Below, piece after piece: positions 50,495 through 63,132 of a stretch of 64,000 nucleotides of DNA. A program made the translations under genes and the position numbers. Numbering within the stretch: the stretch's first letter is position 1; the number at the start of each line of letters is the position of its first letter. Source of the stretch: Chitinophagales bacterium (GTDB lineage Bacteria > Bacteroidota > Bacteroidia > Chitinophagales > JADIYW01); contig JAGNZZ010000001.1 of assembly GCA_017984135.1 (NCBI GenBank), positions 119,801-183,800 of the forward strand, given 5' to 3'. Under the pieces are notes generated by a model, which was not told where the DNA came from, ran no database searches, and worked only from the letters and a program-made list of their open reading frames with translations.

Positions 50495-51121
50495 ATGAAT
50501 AGAATGTTGATTGAGTCACAATACATTGGAACTTGTAGCTATTGGAAATTATTATTGAACGCTCCGGAAATATGTTTTGATAAGCATGAACATTATGTAA
50601 AACGAAGTTATAGAAATCGGGCACATATATTAAGTGCCAATGATGTATTGAGATTAAGTATTCCATTAGAAAGTGGAAAGAATCAACACTCAGCGATGAA
50701 AGATGTTCGTATTTCGTATAAAGAAGATTGGCAAAGTTTACATTGGCAAAGCTTAATTTCCTGTTACAGTCGTTCTCCTTTTTTTGAGTTTTATGAAGAT
50801 AGAATTAAGCCATTTTACATCAAAAAATATGATTATTTATTAGAATTTAATCTTGATTATTTCAATGTGATTTCATCCATCTTAAAACGAAATATCACAG
50901 TACATGAATTAGATCGTTACTATAAATCGGAAGAGTATCATGGAAATGATTTTAGGAATTTTATATTACCCAGAAATGCACGTATCGAATATTTTCCGGA
51001 ATATACACAAGTGTTTAATGATAGAATGGAATTTAAACCAGAATTATGTGTGTTGGATTTAATTTTTAATACTGGAAATCAAAGCGCCACTTATCTTGAT
51101 AAGATTGTACTTAAATTTTAA
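50495..51121 (+). CDS. WbqC-family protein
   Basis: IESQYIGTCSYW...KHEHYVKRSYRNRAHILSANDVLRLSIPL matches my recollection of the WbqC-like family. Confidence 0.7.
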   Translation: MNRMLIESQYIGTCSYWKLLLNAPEICFDKHEHYVKRSYRNRAHILSANDVLRLSIPLESGKNQHSAMKDVRISYKEDWQSLHWQSLISCYSRSPFFEFYEDRIKPFYIKKYDYLLEFNLDYFNVISSILKRNITVHELDRYYKSEEYHGNDFRNFILPRNARIEYFPEYTQVFNDRMEFKPELCVLDLIFNTGNQSATYLDKIVLKF

Positions 51122-51941
51122 CTTCTAATTCCACGTTCCAAAGTTCGGAATTTTCATCTTTGTCAAATTCTTTAGTAAGCTTGACATCTAGTTTTAAATT
51201 TACTAAATTAATGTCTGCAACTTCTTTAGTGCTGATGCTATATGTTTTTAAATCATTTTGTATGCTTTCTATTTTTTGCAATTTAGCATTTGACAAATTA
51301 TAGTTTCTAAGTTGAATGACTACATAATTATACATGCCAATAGCTTTACTTCTATCTGAAGTTTTTATGAAGCCACAATTCCAACTATATTTGCCGTTTT
51401 GTTGATTTTTTATAAATGTAGATTCATACGCACCATTAACTATATAGTTACAAAAAAATTTATTGTTTGTATTGGGAATTTTTATGGAATCCAAAGCATA
51501 CTTTGCATTATATTTTAACTGTGAAATAGTATGATTGATGCCATCTGTTAATGAATAGGATTTGTAATCTGGAACTGACCACCAAGTTGGATTCATGTCT
51601 AAGGTGACTCGAATTCTATTAATTTCGTAATATTTTTCAATGGCATTATAGCGTAATACTTTTAAGCTCATGGGTGTGCCTACTGTACCTTGTACTAATT
51701 TTAAAACTTCACTATAACTCATTTTATGAATAGGCACTTTGTCTATTTCTAAAATCAAATCGCCAGGTCGAATGGAATGAGCATGCAAGTAATGGTTTAT
51801 CTCTAATGATTTGATTTTAAAACGTTGCGTAGTAGAATCAAAAATGGCTTGCCCACCAATTCCTCCGATTTTTGCAGATGGAGTATATGCTGTTGTTAAA
51901 ACAAACAGTGTTCCAAGAATAAAAAAATTGATAAATCTCAT
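51111..51941 (-). CDS. Secreted PDZ-domain protein, otherwise uncharacterised
   Basis: Signal peptide and a PDZ-like segment (IRPGDLILEIDKVPIHKMSYSEVLKLVQGTVGTPMSLKV). Start taken as ATG 51941. Confidence 0.55.
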   Translation of the reverse strand: MRFINFFILGTLFVLTTAYTPSAKIGGIGGQAIFDSTTQRFKIKSLEINHYLHAHSIRPGDLILEIDKVPIHKMSYSEVLKLVQGTVGTPMSLKVLRYNAIEKYYEINRIRVTLDMNPTWWSVPDYKSYSLTDGINHTISQLKYNAKYALDSIKIPNTNNKFFCNYIVNGAYESTFIKNQQNGKYSWNCGFIKTSDRSKAIGMYNYVVIQLRNYNLSNAKLQKIESIQNDLKTYSISTKEVADINLVNLKLDVKLTKEFDKDENSELWNVELEVKI

Positions 51942-51950
51942 GTTGCGATA

Positions 51951-51958
51951 CAAAATTA
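51951..51958 (-). promoter_or_regulatory. Bacteroidota -7 box (TAATTTTG) for the PDZ gene
   Basis: Perfect TAnnTTTG on the minus strand, 9 nt upstream of ATG 51941. Confidence 0.4.
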
Positions 51959-52001: not shown

Positions 52002-53522
52002 TTAAAGCTTCTTAAATAATCCGCCAAATTCCATCATTTTCATCAAATCAGATACTTTTATTTTTCCGGACATAAATGCTTCTTGAGGATTCAATTTTCC
52101 TGTTTCAACAGCCACGTAAGTGGCATCATCGGTTTCTACGGTGCAGTCAACTGCAATTTGTCCACTATTCCCATTATTAATGATTTCTAAAATACCATCA
52201 TTTATAGATACAAAATACGTTGCTGAATCAAATTTAAATTCCATATTTAAATTTTTTCCTTTTGCTTTCTCTGTTTTAAATCGGGAAGGCAAAGTTTGAA
52301 AAACAGCCTCTACAGAATCTAATGAAGTATGTTCTTCTTTATTGATTGAAGTAGCTCTATCGTAGTTGGTATCATCAATAATCATTTTAGCTAAAATTTC
52401 TCTCATAATTTCTGAGGTTCCACCACCAATTGTTCCGATTCGAGAATCTCTGAATGCTCGTGCAATTTTAAAATCTTCCATATAACCATAACCTCCAAAA
52501 ACTTGTAGAATTTGATAGGCACATTTATCTGCTAATTCGGATGCTAACAGTTTAGAAATAGAACTTTCTTTTACAGCATATTTTCCTTCGTTATGCATTC
52601 TGCAAGTTTGTAATACATAGAATTTTATTGCTTCCGTTTCAGCGGCTAATTGTGCTACTTTGTGTCGCAGTACTTGAAATTTATTAATTGGACGACCAAA
52701 TGCATGTCTTTGACTCATATATTCCAATCCATATTGTATCATGCCTTCGCAAGCGGAATATCCCATGATTGAACCTGCTAATCGTTCTAATTGCAAGCCG
52801 CCCATTAAATAATAAAATCCTTTTCCTTCTTCGCCTAATAAATTTTTTGTTGGCACTTTTACATTATCAAAATGCAATTCTGCCGTGTCAGATGCATGCC
52901 AACCTAATTTTTTTAATTTGGTTTTAGATATGCCTTCACTATTTAAATCTACCACCAACAAACTTACGCCTGCTGCGCCAGCACTTGTGTTGGTTTTACA
53001 AACCAAGATTACAAAATGCCCGTAAACGCCATTAGTGATAAATGTTTTAGAGCCATTAACAACGTAGTAATCACCTTCTTTTATTGCGCGAGTTTGTATG
53101 TTAGCCACATCGCTGCCTGCACCTGGTTCTGTGATGCCAATACTGCCAATTTTTTCGCCGGCAATGGCAGCTTTGAAAAATGTTTCTTTTAAGTATTCAC
53201 TTCCATGATGTAAGATGTATGGACTGCTCATGCATACTTGTACGGCTGCCGTGATGGCAAAACCGCCAGAAAAGACTTTAGACACTTCTTCTAACATGAC
53301 AACAGTATAGAAAAAGTCGAGATTGCTTCCGCCATATTGCTCTGGAAAGCTGAGTCCGAAGTAACCCATTTCGCCAAATTTTTTCCAAAATTCACGAGGA
53401 ATTTTTCCATCTAATTCCCATTGGTCGATGTGAGGAACGGCTTCTGCTTTTAAAAAATCTTGAATGGATTTTCTGAACATTTCATGTTCTTCTGTAAAAT
53501 AGTAGGATAGTGCTGTTGACAT
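52002..53522 (-). CDS. Acyl-CoA dehydrogenase fused to a C-terminal SCP2 sterol-carrier-like domain (paralog 1)
   Basis: ACAD core to ~aa 385 (GITEPGAGSD..., GGYGYMEDF...IGGGTSEIM). The last ~110 aa (LPSRFKTEKAKG...LNPQEAFMSGKIKVSDLMKMMEFGGLF) are SCP2-like. Confidence 0.85.
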   Translation of the reverse strand: MSTALSYYFTEEHEMFRKSIQDFLKAEAVPHIDQWELDGKIPREFWKKFGEMGYFGLSFPEQYGGSNLDFFYTVVMLEEVSKVFSGGFAITAAVQVCMSSPYILHHGSEYLKETFFKAAIAGEKIGSIGITEPGAGSDVANIQTRAIKEGDYYVVNGSKTFITNGVYGHFVILVCKTNTSAGAAGVSLLVVDLNSEGISKTKLKKLGWHASDTAELHFDNVKVPTKNLLGEEGKGFYYLMGGLQLERLAGSIMGYSACEGMIQYGLEYMSQRHAFGRPINKFQVLRHKVAQLAAETEAIKFYVLQTCRMHNEGKYAVKESSISKLLASELADKCAYQILQVFGGYGYMEDFKIARAFRDSRIGTIGGGTSEIMREILAKMIIDDTNYDRATSINKEEHTSLDSVEAVFQTLPSRFKTEKAKGKNLNMEFKFDSATYFVSINDGILEIINNGNSGQIAVDCTVETDDATYVAVETGKLNPQEAFMSGKIKVSDLMKMMEFGGLFKKL

Positions 53523-53540
53523 GATAATTAAATAATTTAG

Positions 53541-53555
53541 TAATTAAATAATGTA
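53541..53555. repeat. Left arm of a perfect 15-bp inverted repeat flanking four-helix-bundle gene 1
   Basis: taattaaataatgta is the exact reverse complement of 53942-53956 (tacattatttaatta). A partial tandem copy lies at 53524-53537. Confidence 0.7.
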
Positions 53556-53563
53556 ATAATTAA

Positions 53564-53938
53564 TTAGTTTATTTTAATATTTAACTTTGAAGTTGATATT
53601 ATTTTAGTGAGTATTTTTCTAATTTCTAATAGTTTATCAATTAAATTTTGAGTATCAGGATAGGTATCAACTGCATTGCATATTTCTAACCAATATTCAG
53701 TTTCTTCCAATTCCTTTAATGCAATTTTTATTTTATGAATAAAATCATTTTTACTTTCAGCATTTTGTGCTTCTCTTACATTTGCACCAATTGATGTTCC
53801 TGATTTTAATAATTGATTTGAAATAATAAATTTTCTATTTGATTCTAATAATTCACAATACATGACTTTTTGAATTGAAAAATCAAAAGTCAATTTTAAT
53901 ATTGGATTGCTATTTTTTTCCATAATAGATTTTTTCAT
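53564..53938 (-). CDS. Four-helix-bundle protein (23S rRNA intervening-sequence protein family)
   Basis: SIGANVREAQNAESKNDFIHKIKIALKELEETEYWLEI, the family's hallmark. Confidence 0.85.
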   Translation of the reverse strand: MKKSIMEKNSNPILKLTFDFSIQKVMYCELLESNRKFIISNQLLKSGTSIGANVREAQNAESKNDFIHKIKIALKELEETEYWLEICNAVDTYPDTQNLIDKLLEIRKILTKIISTSKLNIKIN

Positions 53939-53941
53939 TCC

Positions 53942-53956
53942 TACATTATTTAATTA
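53942..53956. repeat. Right arm of the perfect 15-bp inverted repeat; overlaps the stop codon of ACAD-SCP2 paralog 2
   Basis: tacattatttaatta. Its last 3 nt (53954-53956, tta) are the TAA stop of the 53954..55480 gene. Confidence 0.7.
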
Positions 53957-55480
53957 TTTTATTGTTTCATTATTAAATTTTCGGAACAAAGTACCTAACT
54001 GCATCATTTTTCCTAAATCACTTACTTGAACTTTGCCACTCATAAATGCTTCTTGCGGATTAAGATTTCCTGTTTCAATGGCAATGTACGTTGCTTGGTT
54101 AGTAGTTACTATCAAGTCCACAGTTGACGGTCGACGGTCGACAGTGGACAAAGCAACTTGCTTGTTTTTTATTTGAACCCAATGATTTTTTTCATCTTCA
54201 AATTCAAACAACACATTCAACACTACTCCATCTGCTTTTTCTGTTTTTAATCTCGAAGGTAAACTATTGATGATATCATCAATGCTTACATCTTTAGATT
54301 GTGGTCGGTCGACTGTGGGCTGATAGCTTTTATCATCAATAACCATTTTCGATATAATCTCCAACATAATTTCTGATGTTCCACCGCCGATAGTGCCTAA
54401 GCGTGAATCTCGGAAAAAACGTGCCGCTTTGTATTCTTCCATATAACCATAACCACCAAACATTTGCAAACATTGATAGCCTAATTTATCAGATAATTCT
54501 GTGGCTAAATATTTTGACATAGAAGCTTCTTTAACGCAATATTTTTTCTCGTTATGCATTTGGCAAATTAAATAGGTATAAGTTTTTATACTTTCTAATT
54601 CTGCACTGAGTTGTGCCATTCGATGTCGCAAAACTTGAAATTTATTGATGCTTTTTCCAAATGCTTTGCGTTCACTCATATATTGCAAGGTGTATTGTAT
54701 CATTAATTCAGATGCAGCAATTGCTCCTAAGGCTAAGGTCAATCTGTCTAATTCAAAACGCTGCATGATGTAGTAAAATCCTTTGTTTGCTTCACCTAAT
54801 AAATTGGATATTGGCACTTCCACCTTATCGAATGCAATTTCTGCCGTATCACTGGCTTTCCAACCTAATTTTTTCAAATTATTTCTCGAAACACCTTTTG
54901 CATTTCCATCTACCAAAATCATAGATATACCACTTGCGCCAGAGTTGGCAGTTTTGCAAGCTACAATCATATAATCGGCTAAATAGCCATTGGTAATAAA
55001 ACATTTGCTTCCGTTGATGATGTATTTATCACCTTGTTGGATTGCTGTAGTTTTTATTCCGGCAACATCGCTTCCTGCGTGTGGCTCAGTAATGGCTAAA
55101 CATCCAACTATTTCTCCGGCAATGGCTTTATGTAAATATTTTTCTTTTAATTCGTCAGATGCTTCGTGTTTTAAATGCGACATAGACAAATATGGATGTG
55201 CGGAAATGCTTGCTGCAAAACCACCGCTCCAACATTTGCCTACTTCTTCAATAAAAATAACATCGTACCAAAAATCTAAATTAGAACCGCCGTATTTTTC
55301 TTCTTGCGTAATCCCAAAAAATCCCATTTCACCAAAACGCTTAAAAATTTCTCTGGGCAAAAATCCATCTTCTTCCCATTGGTCAATATTGGGTATTACT
55401 TCTTTATCCAAAAAATCGCGAAACGTTTTTCTAAATAATTGATGTTCCTCTTTTAAATAATATTGTTCTAAAATGCTCAT
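53954..55480 (-). CDS. Acyl-CoA dehydrogenase fused to a C-terminal SCP2 sterol-carrier-like domain (paralog 2)
   Basis: Same architecture as 52002..53522 (GGYGYMEEY...IGGGTSEIM; LPSRLKTEKADG...LNPQEAFMSGKVQVSDLGKMMQLGTLF). Confidence 0.85.
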   Translation of the reverse strand: MSILEQYYLKEEHQLFRKTFRDFLDKEVIPNIDQWEEDGFLPREIFKRFGEMGFFGITQEEKYGGSNLDFWYDVIFIEEVGKCWSGGFAASISAHPYLSMSHLKHEASDELKEKYLHKAIAGEIVGCLAITEPHAGSDVAGIKTTAIQQGDKYIINGSKCFITNGYLADYMIVACKTANSGASGISMILVDGNAKGVSRNNLKKLGWKASDTAEIAFDKVEVPISNLLGEANKGFYYIMQRFELDRLTLALGAIAASELMIQYTLQYMSERKAFGKSINKFQVLRHRMAQLSAELESIKTYTYLICQMHNEKKYCVKEASMSKYLATELSDKLGYQCLQMFGGYGYMEEYKAARFFRDSRLGTIGGGTSEIMLEIISKMVIDDKSYQPTVDRPQSKDVSIDDIINSLPSRLKTEKADGVVLNVLFEFEDEKNHWVQIKNKQVALSTVDRRPSTVDLIVTTNQATYIAIETGNLNPQEAFMSGKVQVSDLGKMMQLGTLFRKFNNETIK

Positions 55481-55591: not shown

Positions 55592-55969
55592 TTATAATCC
55601 GTTTACTATTCTTTTTATTCCATGTTTTAAAAGGGTTACATTGAAATTTATTAATAAGCCAAGTTTGTAATTTCCAAGTTTTAAGTAAGTAAGCGTTTGT
55701 GCTAAATGAATGTCATTTAACGCTTCCACACTTTTTATTTCAATTACTAATTTTTCTTCCACCAATAAATCAATTCTATAACCGCAATCAAGTTTAACTT
55801 CTTCAAATAGTAATGGTATTGCTTTTTCTTTGTCAACTTTTAATCCTTCCTTTTTCAACTTATAATATAAACATTCTTGGTATGCACTTTCTAAAAGCCC
55901 AGGTCCTAATGCATTATGAACATCAATTGCTATACCTATAACAAAATGTGATAATTCATTTTCTTTCAT
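55592..55969 (-). CDS. GxxExxY protein (PD-(D/E)XK nuclease-fold family)
   Basis: GLLESAY motif and a D...E.K block (RIDLLVEEKLVIEIK), 125 aa. Confidence 0.85.
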   Translation of the reverse strand: MKENELSHFVIGIAIDVHNALGPGLLESAYQECLYYKLKKEGLKVDKEKAIPLLFEEVKLDCGYRIDLLVEEKLVIEIKSVEALNDIHLAQTLTYLKLGNYKLGLLINFNVTLLKHGIKRIVNGL

Positions 55970-56088: not shown

Positions 56089-56952
56089 TTAATTAATTGT
56101 TTTGATATTCAGCATTTCTCTTGTCTCAGAAATACTTGCAATTTCTCTGTCTAACATACGTGCTAATGTTGCGCCGGCTTCTACACATTCGCCGTTTGAT
56201 TTTGCCATTTCGCCATTGGGTAAGTAGAAATTATCTTCTAATCCAACTCGAAAATTTCCACCCATCGTACAAGCAATAGCAGCCAATTGCCATTGCTTTC
56301 TACTGATAGCAATCACTTGCCAAAATTCATTTTCCGGTACTTGCTTTATTTGATGCATTAAATTTTCTACTGTTGCAGGAATACCACCAAGCACGCCCAT
56401 TACTAAGCTGTAACATGCATTATCAGGAATTAATCCCATTTCTCGAAGTGGCACAACATTATGAATATGTCCGGTGTCGAAACATTCCATTTCCGGACAA
56501 ATATTATTTTCATTCATTGTTTTTACAACTTTAATCATCGTGTCAAAGGAGTTTTCAAAAACGGCATTCCAATAAAATTGTTTTTGTTTTTTGGAAAAGA
56601 TAGCATAGTTCATGCTGCCCATATTAAACGCTGCCATATCGGGTTTTGTAATCGGCAAATGCTTGATTCTTTCTTCTACGGAAAGACCGATTGCGCCTGT
56701 AGAAAAATTGATAATCACATCTGAAGAATGTTTGCGTACCTCCGCTTTAATTTCTTCAAATACTTCTGTTCGCCAACTTGGAATACCATTGTCTTCGCGC
56801 GCGTGAATGTGTACAATACTTGCGCCGGCATCTACTGCGCGTTTGGCTTCTTCACCTAATTCTCTTGGTGTGTATGGTATGGCAGGACAATGTGAACGGT
56901 TGGTGGCTGCTCCTGTGAGCGCTGCACTTAGTATTAGTTTTTTGTTTGACAT
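56089..56952 (-). CDS. Beta-keto acid cleavage enzyme family protein (BKACE; 3-keto-5-aminohexanoate cleavage enzyme-like, DUF849)
   Basis: LTGAATNRSHCPAIPYTPRELGEEAKRAVDAGASIVHIHAR, typical BKACE N-terminus, ~287 aa TIM-barrel size. Confidence 0.8.
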   Translation of the reverse strand: MSNKKLILSAALTGAATNRSHCPAIPYTPRELGEEAKRAVDAGASIVHIHAREDNGIPSWRTEVFEEIKAEVRKHSSDVIINFSTGAIGLSVEERIKHLPITKPDMAAFNMGSMNYAIFSKKQKQFYWNAVFENSFDTMIKVVKTMNENNICPEMECFDTGHIHNVVPLREMGLIPDNACYSLVMGVLGGIPATVENLMHQIKQVPENEFWQVIAISRKQWQLAAIACTMGGNFRVGLEDNFYLPNGEMAKSNGECVEAGATLARMLDREIASISETREMLNIKTIN

Positions 56953-57146: not shown

Positions 57147-57971
57147 TTAATTTCCAATCCAATTTGGTTTTCGTTTTTCTTTGAATGCAGTTAAGCCTTC
57201 AGCTGCATCTTTACTTTGTAAACATTGCATCAACATAGCATGCAAATATTTGTGTTTTTCATCGGCATTTTTTGTTTTCATTTCTTGAAATGCTTTCAAG
57301 CCCAATCGTATGGCAGTAGGTGATTGTTCTTTGATTGCTGCAATTAATTCTTGTACTCGATTTTCTAAATTATCTGCAGTTACTACTTCAGAAACCAATC
57401 CGATTTCTTTTGCTTCACTTGCTGTCAATGTTTTAGCTCGAATGCATAAGTCTAACAGTTGGCGTGCCGACATTAAAGGCTCTAATGTTGCCATTACTTG
57501 AAATGGAAAAATGCCGCGTTTTACTTCAGGCAATCCAAATTTGGCTTCTTCAACGGCGATGACGTGTGTGCAACCACCAATCATTAAAAATCCACCGGCA
57601 TAAACATCGGCATGTACTTGTGCAATGCAAGGTTTATGTAAGCCGTTGAATTCATCGCCGAGTTTGACCATATCTTTTGGCATAGGTATGGTAGATTGTT
57701 TTTCGGCAGTGTTTTCACCAGCAAAGGCTTTTAAATCTGCACCGGCACAAAAGGTTGGTCCGTTGGCTTTGAGAACCACGCACCATATAGCATTGTTGTA
57801 ATGTGCATAAGCTAATGCGAATGCTAATTCATTTGCTAAAGGTGCGTGAAAAGCATTGCGTTTTTCCGGTCGATTGAGTGTGATGGTTAACACGTTTTCC
57901 TTTTCTTCGACAAGTAGGTAAGTAAAACTTTGTTCGTTGAAATTATGGATGTCTTGTTGTGAGTAGAGCAT
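57147..57971 (-). CDS. Enoyl-CoA hydratase/isomerase (crotonase) family; by context probably methylglutaconyl-CoA hydratase
   Basis: Crotonase fold motifs (FCAGADLK, GGGFLMIGGC-like, LPEVKRGIFP). Located between the MCC subunit genes and BKACE. Confidence 0.8.
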   Translation of the reverse strand: MLYSQQDIHNFNEQSFTYLLVEEKENVLTITLNRPEKRNAFHAPLANELAFALAYAHYNNAIWCVVLKANGPTFCAGADLKAFAGENTAEKQSTIPMPKDMVKLGDEFNGLHKPCIAQVHADVYAGGFLMIGGCTHVIAVEEAKFGLPEVKRGIFPFQVMATLEPLMSARQLLDLCIRAKTLTASEAKEIGLVSEVVTADNLENRVQELIAAIKEQSPTAIRLGLKAFQEMKTKNADEKHKYLHAMLMQCLQSKDAAEGLTAFKEKRKPNWIGN

Positions 57972-57976
57972 ATTTA

Positions 57977-58006
57977 TTTATGATTTATGAATTCAGATTT
58001 GAGATT
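57977..58006. repeat. 30-nt AT-rich element tttatgatttatgaattcagatttgagatt
   Basis: 28 of 30 positions match the reverse complement of 61253-61282 by manual alignment. Contains the palindrome TGAATTCA. Lies 6-35 nt upstream of the hydratase start. Confidence 0.6.
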
Positions 58007-58030
58007 AATTTATTCTAACTTTACTTTTCA

Positions 58031-58285
58031 TTTTTTTATGAGATTCCCTTTTACAAGGGAATGACATTTATATCTTAATGTAACCACGTCATTCTCACGA
58101 AAGTGGGAATCTTATTTTATTCCATTTTTATTTTCATTTTATATTTTTTTGAGATTCCCTTTTACAAGGGAATGACATTTATATCTTAATGTAACCACGT
58201 CATTCTCACGAAAGTGGGAATCTTATTTTATTCCATTTTTTCTTTTCATTTTTTTATGAGATTCCCTTTTACAAGGGAATGACAT
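58031..58285. repeat. 2.3 tandem copies of a 107-111 bp structured repeat, downstream flank of the GIY-YIG gene in gene orientation
   Basis: Anchor 'gattccc' at 58042, 58153 and 58260. Each unit has hairpin 1 (attccctt-ttac-aagggaat) and hairpin 2 (attc[t/c]cac-gaaa-gtgggaat). The third copy is cut after hairpin 1 by the gene's stop codon. Confidence 0.85.
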
Positions 58286-58636
58286 TTAATATCCAAAATA
58301 TTTTTTAGATTCATTATAATCTATTATATCCAATTCTGAATACCAATCAATCGCTAAATCTACTCTTTCTTTATTTATAGTATCAATTAATTCATCTTTC
58401 CATTTTCTATTCCATTTCTTTAATTGTTTTTCTCTTTCTATTGCGTTTGCCATATTATTAAACTCCTCGAAATAAATCAACTTTTTTATTTTGTATTTCT
58501 TTGTGAATACTGAACCATCGCCTTGTTTGTGCTGTAAAATTCTATACCATAAATAAGATGTGACACCAATATAAATTACATTACCAAAATTATTGGAGAT
58601 AATGTAAATACATGGATGTTTATTGTCTATTCTCAT
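58286..58636 (-). CDS. GIY-YIG nuclease-domain protein (small URI-domain type, COG2827/UPF0213-like)
   Basis: IYIISNNFGNVIYIGVTSYLWYRILQHKQG...FTKKY...LIYFEEF...AIEREKQLKKWNRKWK. Confidence 0.9.
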   Translation of the reverse strand: MRIDNKHPCIYIISNNFGNVIYIGVTSYLWYRILQHKQGDGSVFTKKYKIKKLIYFEEFNNMANAIEREKQLKKWNRKWKDELIDTINKERVDLAIDWYSELDIIDYNESKKYFGY

Positions 58637-58644
58637 GTTTAATT

Positions 58645-58845
58645 GTTTTTATAAGATTCCCTTTTACAAGGGAATGACATTTGTGTATTAATGTAACCAT
58701 GTCATTCCCACGAAAGTGGGAATCTTACTTTATTCCATTTTTTCTTTTCATTTTTTTATGAGATTCCCTTTTACAAGGGAATGACATTTGTATCTTAATG
58801 TAACCACGTCATTCCCACGAAAGTGGAAATCTTACATTATTTCAA
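58645..58845. repeat. Two further tandem copies of the same 107-bp structured repeat, upstream flank of the GIY-YIG gene
   Basis: Anchor 'gattccc' at 58655 and 58762, in the same orientation as the left block. The last copy runs up to the mccA stop codon (58846). Confidence 0.85.
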
Positions 58846-60861
58846 TCATTCTTTCATTTTTATCAATAACGTTCCGTTTTCTACAAATTGTTTTTCATTA
58901 ACATATATTTCTTCTACTTCGCCGTCGCTGTGGGCTTCAATGGTGCTTTCCATTTTCATAGAAATCATTTTTAATAAAGCATCGCCACTTTTTATTTTGT
59001 CGCCGGCTTTTACTAATACTGCCGTTATTTCGCCTGGCATGGGTGCAATGTATGCACCTTTTACTGTTTCTTCAATTGGACTTGGAAATTTATCTACACT
59101 AAACAAAACAATTTGCCCAAGTTGTGGTGAATGTATGAAATATTGATTACCGTTTTTAGAGAAGAAAAATTTTCGACGAATATTATTTATTTCAAAAGTG
59201 TGCCAATTGTTTCGGGATTTCTCTCTCGCCTTAAGCGAGATCGAATGAAGGTGCTCGTTATAGGTATGGTGTTTTGAAGCGAAATGTTTATCTGCAAATG
59301 AAATATGTAAATATCCGTTTTCGTTTTTGTATTCTACCAAAAATTCAAAGCCGTTAAAGCTGTATTTTTCTTGTTGCGCTTGATAGAAATTATTGCGCCA
59401 ACCTGCAGGAACGCCTTTTGCTAAGGATCTTTCATTTTCTCTTTGTAAAAAACGATAATGTTGCAAGGCACAAGTCAAAATATCCAAGGTTTCTTGCGGA
59501 TAATTTTCACCGGTATATTGGAATTTGTTATCCAAGAAATGCGTATCAAAATTTCCATTTTGGAAATCTTCGTTTTGTAATATAGATACTAAGAAATTTT
59601 TGTTTGTTGTAAAACCAGTTAAAACAGTTTCTTGCAATGCTAAAGTCAATTTAGCGATGGTTTCGTTTCTGTTTTTTCCTTTAGCAATTATTTTTGCAAT
59701 CATTGGGTCGTAGAAAGTTGAAATTTCTGAACCGCTTTCAATTCCGGTGTCATAACGCAAACCATCAATAGTTGCAGGTTGCCAATTCAAAATTTTTCCA
59801 CTTACTGGCATAAAATTGTTGGCTGCATCTTCGGCATATAAACGCACTTCAATAGCGTGTCCGTTTTGGGTAATTTCATTTTGTGTAAAAGGAATTGCAC
59901 TTCCTTGTGCTACTTCTATTTGCAATCGAACTAAATCTAAATGGGTAACTTCTTCTGTAACTGGATGTTCGACTTGCAAACGCGTGTTGACTTCCAAAAA
60001 ATAATAAGATTGGTCGTGAGTAACAATAAACTCTACTGTTCCAGCATTATCGTATTGAATAGCTTTACATGCAGCAACAGCCGCATCACCCATTTTTTTT
60101 CGTGTTTCTTCTGTGATAAAAGGAGATGGGCTTTCTTCTATTATCTTTTGATAACGCCGTTGAATACTACATTCACGTTCAAAAATATGCAATGCATTTC
60201 CATGTTTATCTCCAAAAATTTGAAACTCTATATGTCGAGCAGAATCGAAATATTTTTCTATTAAAAGTGTATCATCGCCGAAACCATTTAATGCTTCTGA
60301 TTTTGCTTCGGCAATGGCTTTGTCTAACTCTTTTTCTTCACACACAATGCGCATACCTTTACCGCCACCGCCAGCACTTGCTTTCAATAAAACAGGAAAT
60401 CCAATTTCAATTGACTTTGTTTTAATGGTTTCAATACTTTGGTCATCGCCTTGATAGCCAGGAATGGTTGGAACATGGTGTGCTTGCATAATTTTTTTTG
60501 CACCAATTTTAGAGCCCATCACTTCAATAGCTTTTGGATGAGGTCCAACCCAAATCATGTTTTCAGCTATCACTCGTTGAGCAAATTCAACACGCTCGCT
60601 CAAAAAACCATAACCTGGATGAATAGCATTTGCACCGGTTTTTTTTGCTGCATCCATAATTTTATCGATTATTAAATACGATTCATTCGGTTGCTTTCCT
60701 CCGATACGAACAGCTTCATCAGCGAGTTTAACAAACAATGCATTTTCATCCGCATCAGAAAAAACAGCAACAGTGGCAATGCCCATTTCTCTGCACGTTT
60801 TAAAAATCCTGCAAGCAATTTCCCCACGATTGGCAACTAATAATTTTTTTATTTTAGACAT
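58846..60861 (-). CDS. mccA: Biotin-dependent acyl-CoA carboxylase alpha subunit (biotin carboxylase plus BCCP), methylcrotonyl-CoA carboxylase type by context
   Basis: KKLLVANRGEIACRI start, ATP-grasp motifs, and a C-terminal biotinyl domain (SMKME). Confidence 0.85.
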   Translation of the reverse strand: MSKIKKLLVANRGEIACRIFKTCREMGIATVAVFSDADENALFVKLADEAVRIGGKQPNESYLIIDKIMDAAKKTGANAIHPGYGFLSERVEFAQRVIAENMIWVGPHPKAIEVMGSKIGAKKIMQAHHVPTIPGYQGDDQSIETIKTKSIEIGFPVLLKASAGGGGKGMRIVCEEKELDKAIAEAKSEALNGFGDDTLLIEKYFDSARHIEFQIFGDKHGNALHIFERECSIQRRYQKIIEESPSPFITEETRKKMGDAAVAACKAIQYDNAGTVEFIVTHDQSYYFLEVNTRLQVEHPVTEEVTHLDLVRLQIEVAQGSAIPFTQNEITQNGHAIEVRLYAEDAANNFMPVSGKILNWQPATIDGLRYDTGIESGSEISTFYDPMIAKIIAKGKNRNETIAKLTLALQETVLTGFTTNKNFLVSILQNEDFQNGNFDTHFLDNKFQYTGENYPQETLDILTCALQHYRFLQRENERSLAKGVPAGWRNNFYQAQQEKYSFNGFEFLVEYKNENGYLHISFADKHFASKHHTYNEHLHSISLKAREKSRNNWHTFEINNIRRKFFFSKNGNQYFIHSPQLGQIVLFSVDKFPSPIEETVKGAYIAPMPGEITAVLVKAGDKIKSGDALLKMISMKMESTIEAHSDGEVEEIYVNEKQFVENGTLLIKMKE

Positions 60862-61246
60862 ATTTTGATTTCAGATTTATGATTTCAGATTTATGATTTT
60901 TTTTAGCTTTTAGTGTTTTTAGAATAGCTGAAAATATAGCAGTTAATTCATTTGATTCTTTGATTAATTCTTCTAATCCATTTAATTTTGAATTTGTTTC
61001 TTCAAATAGTTCAACCCAATAAATACATTCATCTGCTTCTTCTTGAACAATATTTATTTTATTGATAAAATCTGGGTTTGATTTACCTCTTAATGCAGAA
61101 CGATAATTTGCACCAACGGATGTTGATGCTCTAACGATTTGTTTAATTATGATTACATTAGCATAAGTCGGTTTTATGTTTTCAGTAAATTTTATAGTAT
61201 TTACAGCAAATTTTTTTGTTCTATTTCGTAGTTCAATTGAGTTCAT
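60854..61246 (-). CDS. Four-helix-bundle protein (23S rRNA intervening-sequence protein family), copy 2
   Basis: SVGANYRSALRGKSNPDFINKINIVQEEADECIYWVEL. The 3' end overlaps the mccA start by 8 nt (TATGTCTAA). Confidence 0.85.
   Translation of the reverse strand: MNSIELRNRTKKFAVNTIKFTENIKPTYANVIIIKQIVRASTSVGANYRSALRGKSNPDFINKINIVQEEADECIYWVELFEETNSKLNGLEELIKESNELTAIFSAILKTLKAKKNHKSEIINLKSKYV
60866..60903. repeat. Perfect 14-nt tandem duplication (gatttcagatttat x2, plus a partial third) with a T-run
   Basis: Units at 60867-60880 and 60881-60894. They encode the last ~13 aa of four-helix-bundle copy 2. Related to 50395-50414, 10485-10510 and 57977-58006. Confidence 0.75.
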
Positions 61247-61287: not shown

Positions 61288-62892
61288 TTACATTCTAAAC
61301 ACACCCCAAGCATTTGTTCCTTTTACTTCATTTATATAGGTTAATGCTAATATTAACCCAAATACATGTCGTGTATCTCTTGGGTCGATGATGCCATCAT
61401 CCCAAAGTTGACCTGTAGCAAAGAATGCATTACTTTGTTTTTCTATTTCCATTTTCATAAATTCTTTCATTTGTGTTGCTTGTGTTTCGTCGTATTGTTG
61501 ACCAGATTTAATAGCGGCTTCTTTGCTGACCATTTGCATGACACCAGCTAATTGTTCTGCACCCATAACCGCAATCATAGAGTTTGGATAGGAAAATAAA
61601 AAACGTGGATTATAAGCTCGACCGCACATCGCATAATTTCCTGCGCCATACGATGCGCCCATCATTAAAGTAAACATAGGTACTTCGGAATTAGAAACCG
61701 CATTAATCATCTTGGCACCATCTTTAATAATGCCACTTTGTTCGTAATCTTTTCCCACCATAAATCCTGTAATGTTTTGTAAAAATAGGATAGGTGTGTG
61801 GTTCATATTGCACAACTGAATAAAGTGTGCACCTTTGTTAGACGAATCATTAAATAAAACGCCATTATTTCCGATGATTGCAATAGGATAACCGTGAATT
61901 TTTGCATAACCGCAAACTAACGTAGTGCCATATTCTTTTTTAAACTCGTGAAACTCTGAACCATCTACTATGCGAGCAATTACTTCTCGGCAATCAAAAG
62001 GAACTTTAGTGTCCACAGAAACAATTCCGAGTAACTCGTCGATAGGATAATGAGGTTCTTTATAATTTTGAGATTTGAGATTTTGGATATGAGATTTTAA
62101 ATTTAGATTAGCCATTAATTCTCTTGCAATTCTGATTCCATCTAATTCATCTTGCGCTAAATAATCGGAAACGCCTGAAATTTTTGAATGCATTTCTGCT
62201 CCACCTAAAGTTTCATCATCTACAATTTCATTCGTAGCCATTTTTACTAATGGTGGTCCGGCTAAGAAAACTTTAGCATTGTTTTTAATGAAAATAGTAT
62301 AATCGCTCATACCTGGAATATATGCACCGCCGGCAGTTGAATTTCCAAAAACGATAGAGATCGTTGGCACACCTTGTTTAGAACGACGTGTAATTTCTTT
62401 GAAATTATTTCCACCTAAATTAAACACTTGTGCTTGGTCGGGCAAGTTGGCACCTGCACTTTCCACTAAACTGATTCCTGGTAAATTATTTTCTCGTCCA
62501 ATTTCTGAAATACGTAATGCTTTTTTCAAAGAAGCAATATCAATAGCACCACCTTTATTAGTGCCAACATTTGAAGTGATTAAACACATTTTTCCAGATA
62601 CAAAACCTATACCAGCAACCATAGTGCCACCTGTTCCAAAGCCACCTTTTACACCTAATCCTGCTAAAGGACATAATTCTAAAAATGGAGAATCTTGGTC
62701 GAGTAATAATTCTATTCGTTCACGGGCTAAGAACTTGCCTTGTGATTTCGCTTTAGTAGTATGTTTTTCATCTCCTTGAAATATGGATTGTTTGAGATGT
62801 TTTTCTAACTCAGCAATTTTATCAAGCATCTTAGAATAATTCTCTTTATATGATGCAGCGGTTGTATTTATTTTTGTTTTTATAGTGGACAT
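61288..62892 (-). CDS. mccB: Acyl-CoA carboxylase carboxyltransferase (beta) subunit, methylcrotonyl-CoA carboxylase type
   Basis: N-terminal region (GKFLARERIELLLDQDSPFLELCPLAG) resembles the MCC beta subunit more than PCC beta. Tandem crotonase-like CT domains, 534 aa. Confidence 0.85.
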   Translation of the reverse strand: MSTIKTKINTTAASYKENYSKMLDKIAELEKHLKQSIFQGDEKHTTKAKSQGKFLARERIELLLDQDSPFLELCPLAGLGVKGGFGTGGTMVAGIGFVSGKMCLITSNVGTNKGGAIDIASLKKALRISEIGRENNLPGISLVESAGANLPDQAQVFNLGGNNFKEITRRSKQGVPTISIVFGNSTAGGAYIPGMSDYTIFIKNNAKVFLAGPPLVKMATNEIVDDETLGGAEMHSKISGVSDYLAQDELDGIRIARELMANLNLKSHIQNLKSQNYKEPHYPIDELLGIVSVDTKVPFDCREVIARIVDGSEFHEFKKEYGTTLVCGYAKIHGYPIAIIGNNGVLFNDSSNKGAHFIQLCNMNHTPILFLQNITGFMVGKDYEQSGIIKDGAKMINAVSNSEVPMFTLMMGASYGAGNYAMCGRAYNPRFLFSYPNSMIAVMGAEQLAGVMQMVSKEAAIKSGQQYDETQATQMKEFMKMEIEKQSNAFFATGQLWDDGIIDPRDTRHVFGLILALTYINEVKGTNAWGVFRM

Positions 62893-62966
62893 AATTTTCT
62901 TTTTTTAAAACAACAGGATGTTTAAAAAACATTAACAAGTATAAGCATTTTCTATTAATTTGACTA

Positions 62967-62979
62967 AACGTTTGGTAAA
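62967..62979. promoter_or_regulatory. Candidate operator, copy 1 of AACGTTTGGTAAA
   Basis: Exact 13-mer repeated at 63053-63065. Contains the palindrome AAACGTTT. Lies where a -33 element for the minus-strand operon would be expected, relative to an imperfect -7 box TATACTTG at 62936-62943. Confidence 0.35.
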
Positions 62980-63052
62980 AAATTATTTGTAAAATTTGTG
63001 TTAATTCATATCAAGCACTTGATATTCAACATTAAAAGCGGTAAAACAAACG

Positions 63053-63065
63053 AACGTTTGGTAAA
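63053..63065. promoter_or_regulatory. Candidate operator, copy 2 of AACGTTTGGTAAA
   Basis: Exact 13-mer, embedded in CAAACG-AA-CGTTTG (63047-63060). Ends 2 nt before the -33 TTTG of the SCP2-gene promoter. Confidence 0.35.
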
Positions 63066-63067
63066 TA

Positions 63068-63099
63068 TTTGGAATAATTAAAATCTTTATTTACATTTG
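63068..63099 (+). promoter_or_regulatory. Bacteroidota promoter for the SCP2 gene (-33 TTTG and -7 TACATTTG)
   Basis: TTTG at 63068-63071, 20-nt spacer, TAcaTTTG at 63092-63099, ATG 33 nt further on. Confidence 0.5.
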
Positions 63100-63132
63100 T
63101 TTATTCATATTAATTAATAAAAATCAACTCAA

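Follow-up and report, generated by a model that had tools for sequence, protein, structure and literature searches.

Introduction

Nature's most abundant lipids include acyclic isoprenoids, among them chlorophyll-derived phytol and the chains of quinones and carotenoids. Only for C10 terpenes in Pseudomonas is it known in detail how bacteria break such compounds down. The closest described system is the Pseudomonas Atu cluster, which includes AtuA, the signature protein of the acyclic-terpene pathway, whose reaction has been assigned only tentatively. A second relevant theme is the use of SCP2 domains for substrate binding or presentation, exemplified by the SCP2-like domain of SdsA1, by MFE-2 and SCPx in peroxisomal branched-chain oxidation, and by UbiJ, which handles polyprenyl intermediates. 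[quoted passage not shown] We consider it probable that this cluster is an Atu-like module, which would remove beta-methyl branches from long-chain isoprenoid acyl-CoAs while SCP2 domains hold their hydrophobic tails.

The cluster is co-directional on the minus strand and runs from 62892 to 52002, in the order carboxyltransferase (CT) beta subunit, biotin carboxylase/biotin carboxyl carrier protein (BC/BCCP) alpha subunit, hydratase, BKACE, ACAD2-SCP2 and ACAD1-SCP2. A gene for a free SCP2 protein diverges from it and shares its upstream region. An original prediction, made from the DNA letters and their open reading frames (ORFs) alone, had drawn attention to the fusions and to a possible bulky or isoprenoid-type substrate, and its claims are taken up below where the results bear on them.

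Results

Two acyl-CoA dehydrogenases are fused to SCP2 domains

Both ACADs match the three ACAD families of Pfam (PF02771, PF02770 and PF00441) with E-values of 1e-23 to 1e-40. Towards their C-termini they also match the SCP2 family PF02036, at residues 417-504 of ACAD1 (40.8 bits, E-value 2.9e-10) and 422-499 of ACAD2 (32.2 bits, E-value 1.4e-7), against a gathering score of 21.3 bits; the same regions match Alkyl_sulf_C (PF14864), a family related to SCP2. The original prediction had described fusions of 506 and 508 residues and would have counted as refuted had profile searches missed SCP2 in their C-termini. The ORFs are as it described, SCP2 is detected in both, and the motifs LPSR.K.E.A and LNPQEAFMSGK that it had pointed to are present and conserved. 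Its description of the two genes as tandem holds in that they are neighbouring paralogs on the same strand, but they are not directly adjacent, as a 124-residue ORF of the 23S rRNA intervening-sequence protein (IVP) family lies between them (Table 1).

In ACAD1, the ACAD domains take up residues ~1-383 and are joined by a flexible linker (~384-403) to the SCP2 domain (~404-506; nucleotides 52005-52313), and the SCP2 domain of ACAD2 spans residues ~400-504 (nucleotides ~53969-54283). An AlphaFold model of ACAD1 (pLDDT 80, pTM 0.70) predicts an ACAD body, a disordered linker, in which residues 384-398 fall below a pLDDT of 50, and a C-terminal alpha/beta module whose modelled secondary-structure order is that of the SCP2 fold. 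Foldseek matched the model to ACAD structures with TMt values of 0.86-0.91; these alignments end at residues ~380-398 of 506, and no solved chain was found that covers both ACAD and SCP2.

A literature search for the ACAD-SCP2 fusion returned papers on eukaryotic peroxisomes and no description of a bacterial case. In metagenome-assembled genomes (MAGs), by contrast, the architecture is widespread rather than rare, and public records label the proteins 'acyl-CoA dehydrogenase family protein'. The original prediction knew of no characterised ACAD-SCP2 protein; this agrees with the lack of any publication or solved chain in our searches, but the architecture itself is common.

The paralogs are 59% identical over their ACAD domains and 50% identical over their fused SCP2 domains. 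Twenty-five sites are conserved within each paralog and differ between ACAD1-type and ACAD2-type proteins. These sites cluster at residues 90-102 (helix E) and 239-244 (directly before the catalytic position on helix G), two segments that line the acyl pocket in established ACAD structures. Some ACAD1 orthologs (P0020, P0075, P0096, P0112 and P0115) carry an SCP2 domain of ACAD2 flavour ('LNVLFEFEN...STVD..PSTVDL'), a pattern that suggests that the tandem paralogs have swapped domains or undergone gene conversion.

The dehydrogenases are LCAD-like enzymes

The catalytic base of long-chain acyl-CoA dehydrogenase (LCAD) is the Glu of the segment 'PQERL', and its counterpart in isovaleryl-CoA dehydrogenase (IVD) is Glu254. 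The original prediction had instead read the Glu of the motif GYGYME[DE] (E349 in ACAD1) as the base of the medium- and short-chain enzymes (MCAD and SCAD), and had seen no IVD arrangement. Alignments to structures in the PDB overturn both statements. The MCAD segment I-Y-E376-G-T reads I-G-G-G-T in both proteins, with Gly at the position of Glu376 (G367 in ACAD1, G366 in ACAD2), and the Glu of GYGYME[DE] lies elsewhere, while the LCAD/IVD-type Glu on helix G is present. An MCAD/SCAD-type assignment is excluded by these Gly residues. The nearest solved relatives read alike in this segment ('IYAGT' in 2pg0, 'IGGGT' in 3r7k and 'IYGGT' in human LCAD). E246 of ACAD1 ('LQLERL', helix G; codon 52785-52787) aligns with the Glu of human LCAD 'PQERL' and is the candidate catalytic base in an LCAD/IVD arrangement.

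We extended this comparison to the window pair and 90 related ACAD-SCP2 proteins, comprising 34 ACAD1-type, 30 ACAD2-type and 28 members of a second family (group B, described below). The helix-G Glu is present in 91 of the 92 proteins, and the MCAD-Glu376 position is G, A or V throughout. The sole exception at helix G is ACAD2 of the window, which has Asp (D245, codon GAC, 54746-54748) where all 29 of its orthologs have Glu ('FELERL'). The substitution is real, and a sequencing error can be ruled out, because the exact protein recurs in independent samples: it is found on at least six contigs, and the four listed each come from a different sample. One further protein, P0389 (MBP6153361.1), has Glu245 and looked otherwise identical to ACAD2 when read by eye, without formal alignment. 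D245 is thus a strain-level polymorphism at a catalytic residue, and apparently a very recent one.

By score, the nearest solved relatives are Geobacillus 2pg0 (350 bits), 3r7k and human LCAD 8w0t (285 bits), followed by IVD (243 bits), then SCAD, then MCAD (164 bits). Foldseek ranks the relatives of ACAD1 in the same order, and the best sequence and structure matches share 39-44% identity. Neither protein reaches an NCBIfam equivalog cut-off, for IVD or for any other enzyme, and an identity as IVD was set aside given this result and the position of IVD below 2pg0 and LCAD. As judged from residues and scores, ACAD1 and ACAD2 are LCAD-like enzymes with an added domain, neither of the MCAD/SCAD type nor IVD.

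The carboxylase carries geranyl-CoA carboxylase signatures

The beta subunits of MCC (3-methylcrotonyl-CoA carboxylase) and GCC (geranyl-CoA carboxylase) can be told apart by a selector position, which is Phe191 preceded by a three-residue insertion in MCC and Gly without the insertion in GCC (Jurado et al. 2015, PMC4673880). Both also possess an N-terminal helix that is absent from the beta subunit of propionyl-CoA carboxylase (PCC) (PMC4673880). In the CT of the window, G160 ('VFNLGGNNF', codon 62413-62415) aligns with the MCC Phe ('PDRDHF'; 191 in human numbering) and with the GCC Gly, a position also numbered Gly162 (Phe191/Gly162). There is a three-residue gap relative to Pseudomonas aeruginosa MCC (PaMCC, 3u9r), human MCC (8j4z) and 9tps, and none relative to P. 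aeruginosa GCC (PaGCC, 5ikl). The MCC/GCC-type N-terminal helix is present: alignments to MCC and GCC begin at query residues 2-5, whereas most PCC-type chains align from about residue 22-33 and a few from 8-18. Eight orthologs carry the selector motif unchanged or almost unchanged. By the published rules the CT is therefore classed as GCC-type, and carboxylation of geranyl-CoA or a longer 3-methyl-2-enoyl-CoA is predicted.

AtuA and BKACE alternate in orthologous clusters

We scanned 185,579 species-representative genomes with an alignment of the SCP2 domain and obtained 386 confirmed stretches, from which 74 loci were kept; because this census of the fusion depends on a single peptide pattern, it gives a minimum. 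Most of what a profile search with the SCP2 alignment retrieved were fragments and stand-alone SCP2 proteins, and so it gives no census of full-length fusions, and the 330 clusters found in a representative library are likewise not a fusion count. In that library the window's own family is apparently present as fragments or by a representative that lacks SCP2.

The loci orthologous to the cluster of the window (group A; L001 and L005-L041) all come from Chitinophagales, Sphingobacteriales or Saprospirales MAGs. Their order is a divergent free SCP2 gene, then CT, BC, ECH, a variable slot X, two ACAD-SCP2 genes and a PDZ-domain protein. In the 26 loci whose contig covers slot X, the window included, the slot holds either AtuA (PF07287) with an AtuA ferredoxin-like ORF (PF23544), in 14, or a BKACE, in 12, and never both or neither. 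In a neighbour-joining tree of ECH, ACAD2 and ACAD1, calculated without support values, the AtuA loci are basal, and BKACE is found in one clade and, apart from it, in three loci placed within the AtuA group; this interleaving points to more than a single exchange. The alternation looks like a non-orthologous displacement, and it may provide a clue to the function of AtuA.

The BKACE of the window keeps the HxH and GLED metal motifs of its family, and its segments 'VHIHAR' and 'RVGLED' line up with their counterparts in the solved BKACE-family chains 3lot and 8rio. Enzymes of this family convert a beta-keto acid and acetyl-CoA to acetoacetate and a shortened acyl-CoA. Public records name the protein '3-keto-5-aminohexanoate cleavage protein', and it falls below every NCBIfam equivalog cut-off (277 bits, versus 382 for Kce). 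The BKACE literature that we searched, including the NetSyn preprint, describes no carboxylase, ACAD, GCC or hydratase context.

A tblastn search of AtuA against plasmids found AtuA beside carboxylases in Proteobacteria and no AtuD-type ACAD. On an Achromobacter denitrificans plasmid (L083; CP150726.1, 75553-94917), AtuA and a small ORF lie directly upstream of a carboxyltransferase, and further genes encode a biotin carboxylase, a CaiB/BaiF CoA-transferase, a MaoC dehydratase and two hydratases. This gene order indicates that the association of AtuA with MCC/GCC-type carboxylases extends well beyond the atu clusters of Pseudomonas.

Further fusions of SCP2 and ACAD domains

A second ACAD-SCP2 family, of ~530 residues, occurs in other gene contexts in 28 loci (group B) from Bacteroidota, Chitinophagaceae among them, and from MAGs of KSB1, Deferribacteres and Deltaproteobacteria. 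Several of these loci adjoin fusions of an N-terminal SCP2 domain to a family-III CoA-transferase (CoA_transf_3), found in L043 (15579-17126), L052 (9992-11578), L045, L056, L062, L069 and L071, and as a fragment in P0168. The nearest solved relatives of the transferase domain are SUGCT and alpha-methylacyl-CoA racemase. Because these fusions often adjoin ACAD-SCP2 genes of the second family, the tethering of SCP2 extends to other acyl-CoA enzymes. Metagenomic representatives include ACAD-SCP2 proteins of 535-875 residues with long linkers.

In Saprospiraceae, an ACAD1-like and an ACAD2-like half are joined in a single chain of ~792 residues without SCP2. In reciprocal comparison, one half is nearest to ACAD1 (59.7 versus 53.6% identity) and the other to ACAD2 (55.9 versus 49.9%). 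This gene adjoins a short-chain dehydrogenase/reductase (SDR) and a BKACE 75% identical to that of the window; the same cluster contains a TonB-dependent receptor, an acyl-CoA synthetase and alpha/beta hydrolases, and no carboxylase.

The free SCP2 protein

The stand-alone SCP2 gene, reported in the original prediction as divergent from the operon, is borne out by its coordinates and by its match to PF02036 (45.3 bits, E-value 1.2e-11). Its AlphaFold model has a pLDDT of 93.5, and Foldseek matched it to chains of the SCP2 fold at probability 1.0. The best structural match is the C-domain of the SdsA1 alkylsulfatase (TM 0.82), and others include archaeal and human SCP2, the SCP2L domain of MFE-2, and UbiJ-SCP2. 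The protein is only 26-31% identical to the fused SCP2 domains of the window, which argues against its being a recent split-off from its neighbours, and we rejected that origin; with the SCP2 domain of a different ACAD-SCP2 family it shares 53% identity. The divergent arrangement is kept in L001, L012, L022, L031 and L074. Near relatives of the fused SCP2 domains also occur in two metagenomic MFE-2-like proteins (P0241 and P0243), in which three or four tandem SCP2 domains stand between an SDR and a hydratase 2 domain.

Layout of the locus, inserted ORFs and a conserved upstream motif

The features of the locus are collected in Table 1. The window has a low GC content (~31%), and its remainder yielded no additional lipid-catabolic genes. 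With few exceptions among the orthologous loci, the gene directly downstream of ACAD1 encodes the PDZ-domain protein and shares its strand. Four small ORFs interrupt the cluster, two of the 23S rRNA IVP family, one GIY-YIG and one PDDEXK_3, all from families commonly met as selfish insertions. Across orthologous clusters these families occupy differing intergenic positions and show presence/absence polymorphism, which suggests that they are mobile or selfish elements that tolerate or exploit intergenic sites in operons. On either side of the GIY-YIG ORF stand tandem arrays (58005-58293 and 58638-58861; 2.7 and 2.1 copies by TRF) with a unit of 107-111 bp, 88% matches and two hairpins, ATTCCCTTTTACAAGGGAAT and ATTCYCACGAAAGTGGGAAT. 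In a pattern search of the window the second hairpin occurred four times, where no occurrence was expected.

Table 1. Features of the ACAD-SCP2 locus and of the related ACAD-ACAD fusion. Positions are those of the window unless a locus is named.
Feature	Position	Strand	Basis
PDZ-domain protein, hydrophobic N-terminus	51111-51953	-	Pfam, synteny
ACAD1-SCP2, 506 aa	52002-53522	-	Pfam, PDB alignments, AF2 model, conservation
23S rRNA intervening-sequence protein family (PF05635), 124 aa	53564-53938	-	Pfam, 75.3 bits
ACAD2-SCP2, 508 aa	53954-55480	-	Pfam, D245 codon, ortholog comparison
PDDEXK_3 (PD-(D/E)XK nuclease family) small ORF	55592-55969	-	Pfam, 141.6 bits
BKACE-family enzyme (PF05853)	56089-56952	-	Pfam, 316 bits
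Enoyl-CoA hydratase, crotonase fold, AtuE/LiuC position	57147-57971	-	Pfam
GIY-YIG ORF (58286-58636) with flanking tandem arrays	58005-58861	-	Pfam, TRF, pattern search
Biotin carboxylase + BCCP alpha subunit, 671 aa, MCC/GCC-type acyl-CoA carboxylase	58846-60861	-	Pfam, NCBIfam
Second 23S rRNA IVP-family ORF	60854-61246	-	Pfam
Carboxyltransferase beta subunit, geranyl-CoA carboxylase signatures	61288-62892	-	Pairwise alignments, PMC4673880 rule
Divergent intergenic region with two ACGTTTGGTAAA copies	62893-63132	.	Sequence, window search, orthologous loci
Free SCP2 protein, 108 aa	63133-63459	+	Pfam, AF2, Foldseek, synteny
ACAD-ACAD single-chain fusion (P0054; also P0013, P0017)	L002-L004, 10001-12379

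In the intergenic region between the free SCP2 gene and the carboxylase, ACGTTTGGTAAA occurs twice in direct orientation, at 62968-62979 and, 86 bp further on, at 63054-63065. Pairs of this sequence recur with a spacing of 86-87 bp in L001 (135-146 and 222-233) and L022 (369-380 and 456-467). It is also found at the equivalent place in L012, L031 and L074, and once in several group-B loci. On this conservation, ACGTTTGGTAAA is a candidate operator or promoter element. Scans for sigma-70 promoters and terminators, of a kind that does not cover Bacteroidota promoters, returned no more sites than in shuffled sequence.

Discussion

From the architecture, residue signatures, synteny and AtuA/BKACE alternation described above, we infer a class of substrate, a role for SCP2 and a division of labour between the paralogs. 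Long methyl-branched acyl-CoAs of the phytanoyl, phytenoyl or farnesoyl type would be held by their tails in SCP2 tunnels. The tethered SCP2 domains would present them to the ACAD active sites, and the free SCP2 would ferry intermediates between enzymes. One ACAD paralog would produce a 3-methyl-2-enoyl-CoA, the methyl group of which would then be carboxylated by the carboxylase, and hydration and cleavage would remove the branch as a C2 unit. The other paralog, with its different pocket residues, would serve the next, unbranched round of beta-oxidation. The cleavage or re-activation enzyme would be AtuA with its ferredoxin-like partner or, in the window, the BKACE. This scheme would explain why there are two paralogs, as each isoprene unit requires both a 3-methyl-branched and an unbranched ACAD step, and such a division of labour is consistent with the location of the paralog-discriminating sites along the acyl pocket. 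The suggestion in the original prediction of a bulkier, isoprenoid-type substrate gains support from the GCC signatures, from AtuA in the orthologous slot and from the LCAD-like affinity of the ACADs.

Several observations weigh against this proposal. The conserved catalytic Glu is replaced by Asp in ACAD2 of the window itself. The hydratase sequence is not substrate-diagnostic, its PDB matches, including SidH and AtuE (4zu2), all scoring ~95-105 bits. Over its whole sequence the CT scores almost as well against GCC (517 bits) as against MCC (525 bits), and since these scores do not separate the two enzymes, the GCC assignment draws on the two local signatures. In the window there is no AtuA, its slot being occupied by the BKACE, and no alcohol/aldehyde dehydrogenase (AtuB/G), acyl-CoA synthetase (AtuH), thiolase or regulator. 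The role of the BKACE is the weakest step, and its chemistry here is conjecture. It would fit if an HMG-CoA-lyase-type cleavage released a free 3-oxo acid, which is likewise conjectural, and the cluster contains no enzyme of the HMG-CoA-lyase type.

A rival reading is an ordinary leucine/isovalerate (Liu) operon, in which the ACADs would be IVD variants, the carboxylase a 3-methylcrotonyl-CoA carboxylase and the SCP2 domains incidental. In its favour, MCC beta subunits match the CT as well as GCC does or slightly better, the order of carboxylase, hydratase and ACAD genes resembles that of liu clusters, and the catalytic base is of the IVD/LCAD type. We nevertheless regard this explanation as very improbable: the CT selector is Gly instead of Phe and is not preceded by the insertion seen in MCC, the cluster is without an HMG-CoA lyase, AtuA occupies the orthologous slot of 14 loci, three SCP2 modules are present at one locus, and the ACAD domains resemble LCAD and 2pg0 more closely than IVD and reach neither the IVD cut-off nor that of any other equivalog. 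The LCAD-like affinity would itself suit generic long-chain, FadE-like dehydrogenases, with SCP2 assisting straight-chain acyl-CoAs and a carboxylase that is syntenic without being functionally coupled. The carboxylase-free cluster around the related ACAD-ACAD fusion (TonB receptor, acyl-CoA synthetase, hydrolases, SDR and BKACE) and the varied contexts of the group-B ACAD-SCP2 genes point in the same direction. Against this, carboxylase, hydratase, AtuA/BKACE and the two ACADs keep their order on one strand across 26 loci despite insertions of selfish ORFs, and a motif is conserved in the shared upstream region. We regard this generic reading as quite improbable.

A further alternative concerns the ACAD pair itself, which might form an obligate heteromer of the alpha2beta2 type (FadE/ChsE-like), as known from steroid side-chain degradation, with sterol-, hopanoid- or other polycyclic acyl-CoAs as substrates borne by SCP2. 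The tandem pair is kept in every locus, and the Saprospiraceae single chain, with one half resembling ACAD1 and the other ACAD2, also speaks in its favour. In known alpha2beta2 ACADs (FadE26-27 or ChsE type), one subunit is degenerate. Here neither paralog lacks the catalytic base and FAD-binding residues: both keep an acidic residue on helix G, and the TEPxAGSD and RDxR segments, presumably those that contact the cofactor in ACADs, read alike in the two translations. Furthermore, there are no steroid-catabolic genes nearby, and the carboxylase/AtuA context points instead to the removal of methyl branches. We therefore consider a polycyclic-substrate heteromer unlikely. ACAD1 and ACAD2 may still associate physically, as the Saprospiraceae fusion suggests, in a heterodimer with two active sites rather than a degenerate alpha2beta2 enzyme, given that both paralogs keep their catalytic residues. 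A heterodimer with two different active sites is compatible with the isoprenoid module proposed above.

More tentatively, the locus could represent a soluble, SCP2-scaffolded catabolism of long isoprenoid lipids, such as acids derived from phytol, in uncultured Chitinophagales and Saprospirales, combined with a non-orthologous replacement of AtuA by BKACE. The carriers would then be tethered to ACADs and, in sister lineages, to a family-III CoA-transferase/racemase, and a free SCP2 would hand on the intermediates. Should this combined view be true, AtuA and BKACE would handle the same intermediate, in the cleavage or CoA re-activation that follows the 3-hydroxy-3-alkylglutaryl-CoA stage, and AtuA would thereby gain a concrete role. 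The significance of the alternation would be greater if it were a true functional replacement; in any case, a slot that is mutually exclusive for AtuA and BKACE offers a handle both on the function of AtuA and on a BKACE subfamily to which no substrate has been assigned. The locus also suggests how abundant uncultured Bacteroidota of freshwater and wastewater may handle long, insoluble isoprenoids, by means of carrier domains attached to their enzymes, and within the ACAD family, which has been studied thoroughly, it brings in a domain architecture not yet characterised. Given their generic public names, such genes are likely to be read as a leucine-like operon, as they were in the original prediction.

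Comparison with known systems places these elements in context. In their fold and in the catalytic Glu on helix G, the ACADs resemble LCAD (8w0t), 2pg0 and IVD (1ivh), none of which has a C-terminal lipid-binding domain and from all of which they differ in their pocket residues. The attachment of a C-terminal SCP2 domain to a beta-oxidation enzyme, and the SCP2 fold itself, are shared with SCPx (thiolase-SCP2) and MFE-2 (dehydrogenase-hydratase-SCP2L), which belong to the branched-chain (pristanoyl-CoA) beta-oxidation of isoprenoid-derived acyl-CoAs. Here, however, the partner is an ACAD, the proteins are bacterial with no role in peroxisomal targeting, and the branch would be removed by carboxylation rather than alpha-oxidation. 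The SdsA1 alkylsulfatases and UbiJ-SCP2 likewise use a bacterial SCP2-like domain to recruit a long aliphatic or polyprenyl ligand to an enzyme or a complex of enzymes, although their catalytic domains and pathways are unrelated. The BKACE shares the TIM-barrel Zn motifs HxH and GLED with Kce (3-keto-5-aminohexanoate cleavage enzyme) and the dehydrocarnitine cleavage enzyme, and differs from characterised members of its family in scoring below the equivalog cut-offs and in its GCC, hydratase and ACAD context.

The closest parallel overall is the Pseudomonas Atu cluster (geranyl-CoA carboxylase AtuC/AtuF, hydratase AtuE, citronellyl-CoA dehydrogenase AtuD, and AtuA). As there, a carboxylase with GCC signatures, a crotonase-fold hydratase and ACAD genes are combined in one operon, and roughly every second orthologous cluster has AtuA, there split into AtuA and ferredoxin-like ORFs. 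The differences are equally marked: two ACADs are each fused to SCP2 and joined by a free SCP2 protein, the window has BKACE in place of AtuA and no homologs of AtuB, AtuG, AtuH or AtuR, the host is a member of the Bacteroidota, and the SCP2 modules suggest substrates longer than C10 monoterpenes. The cluster is thus Atu-like in its logic, rather than a plain member of the Atu pathway.

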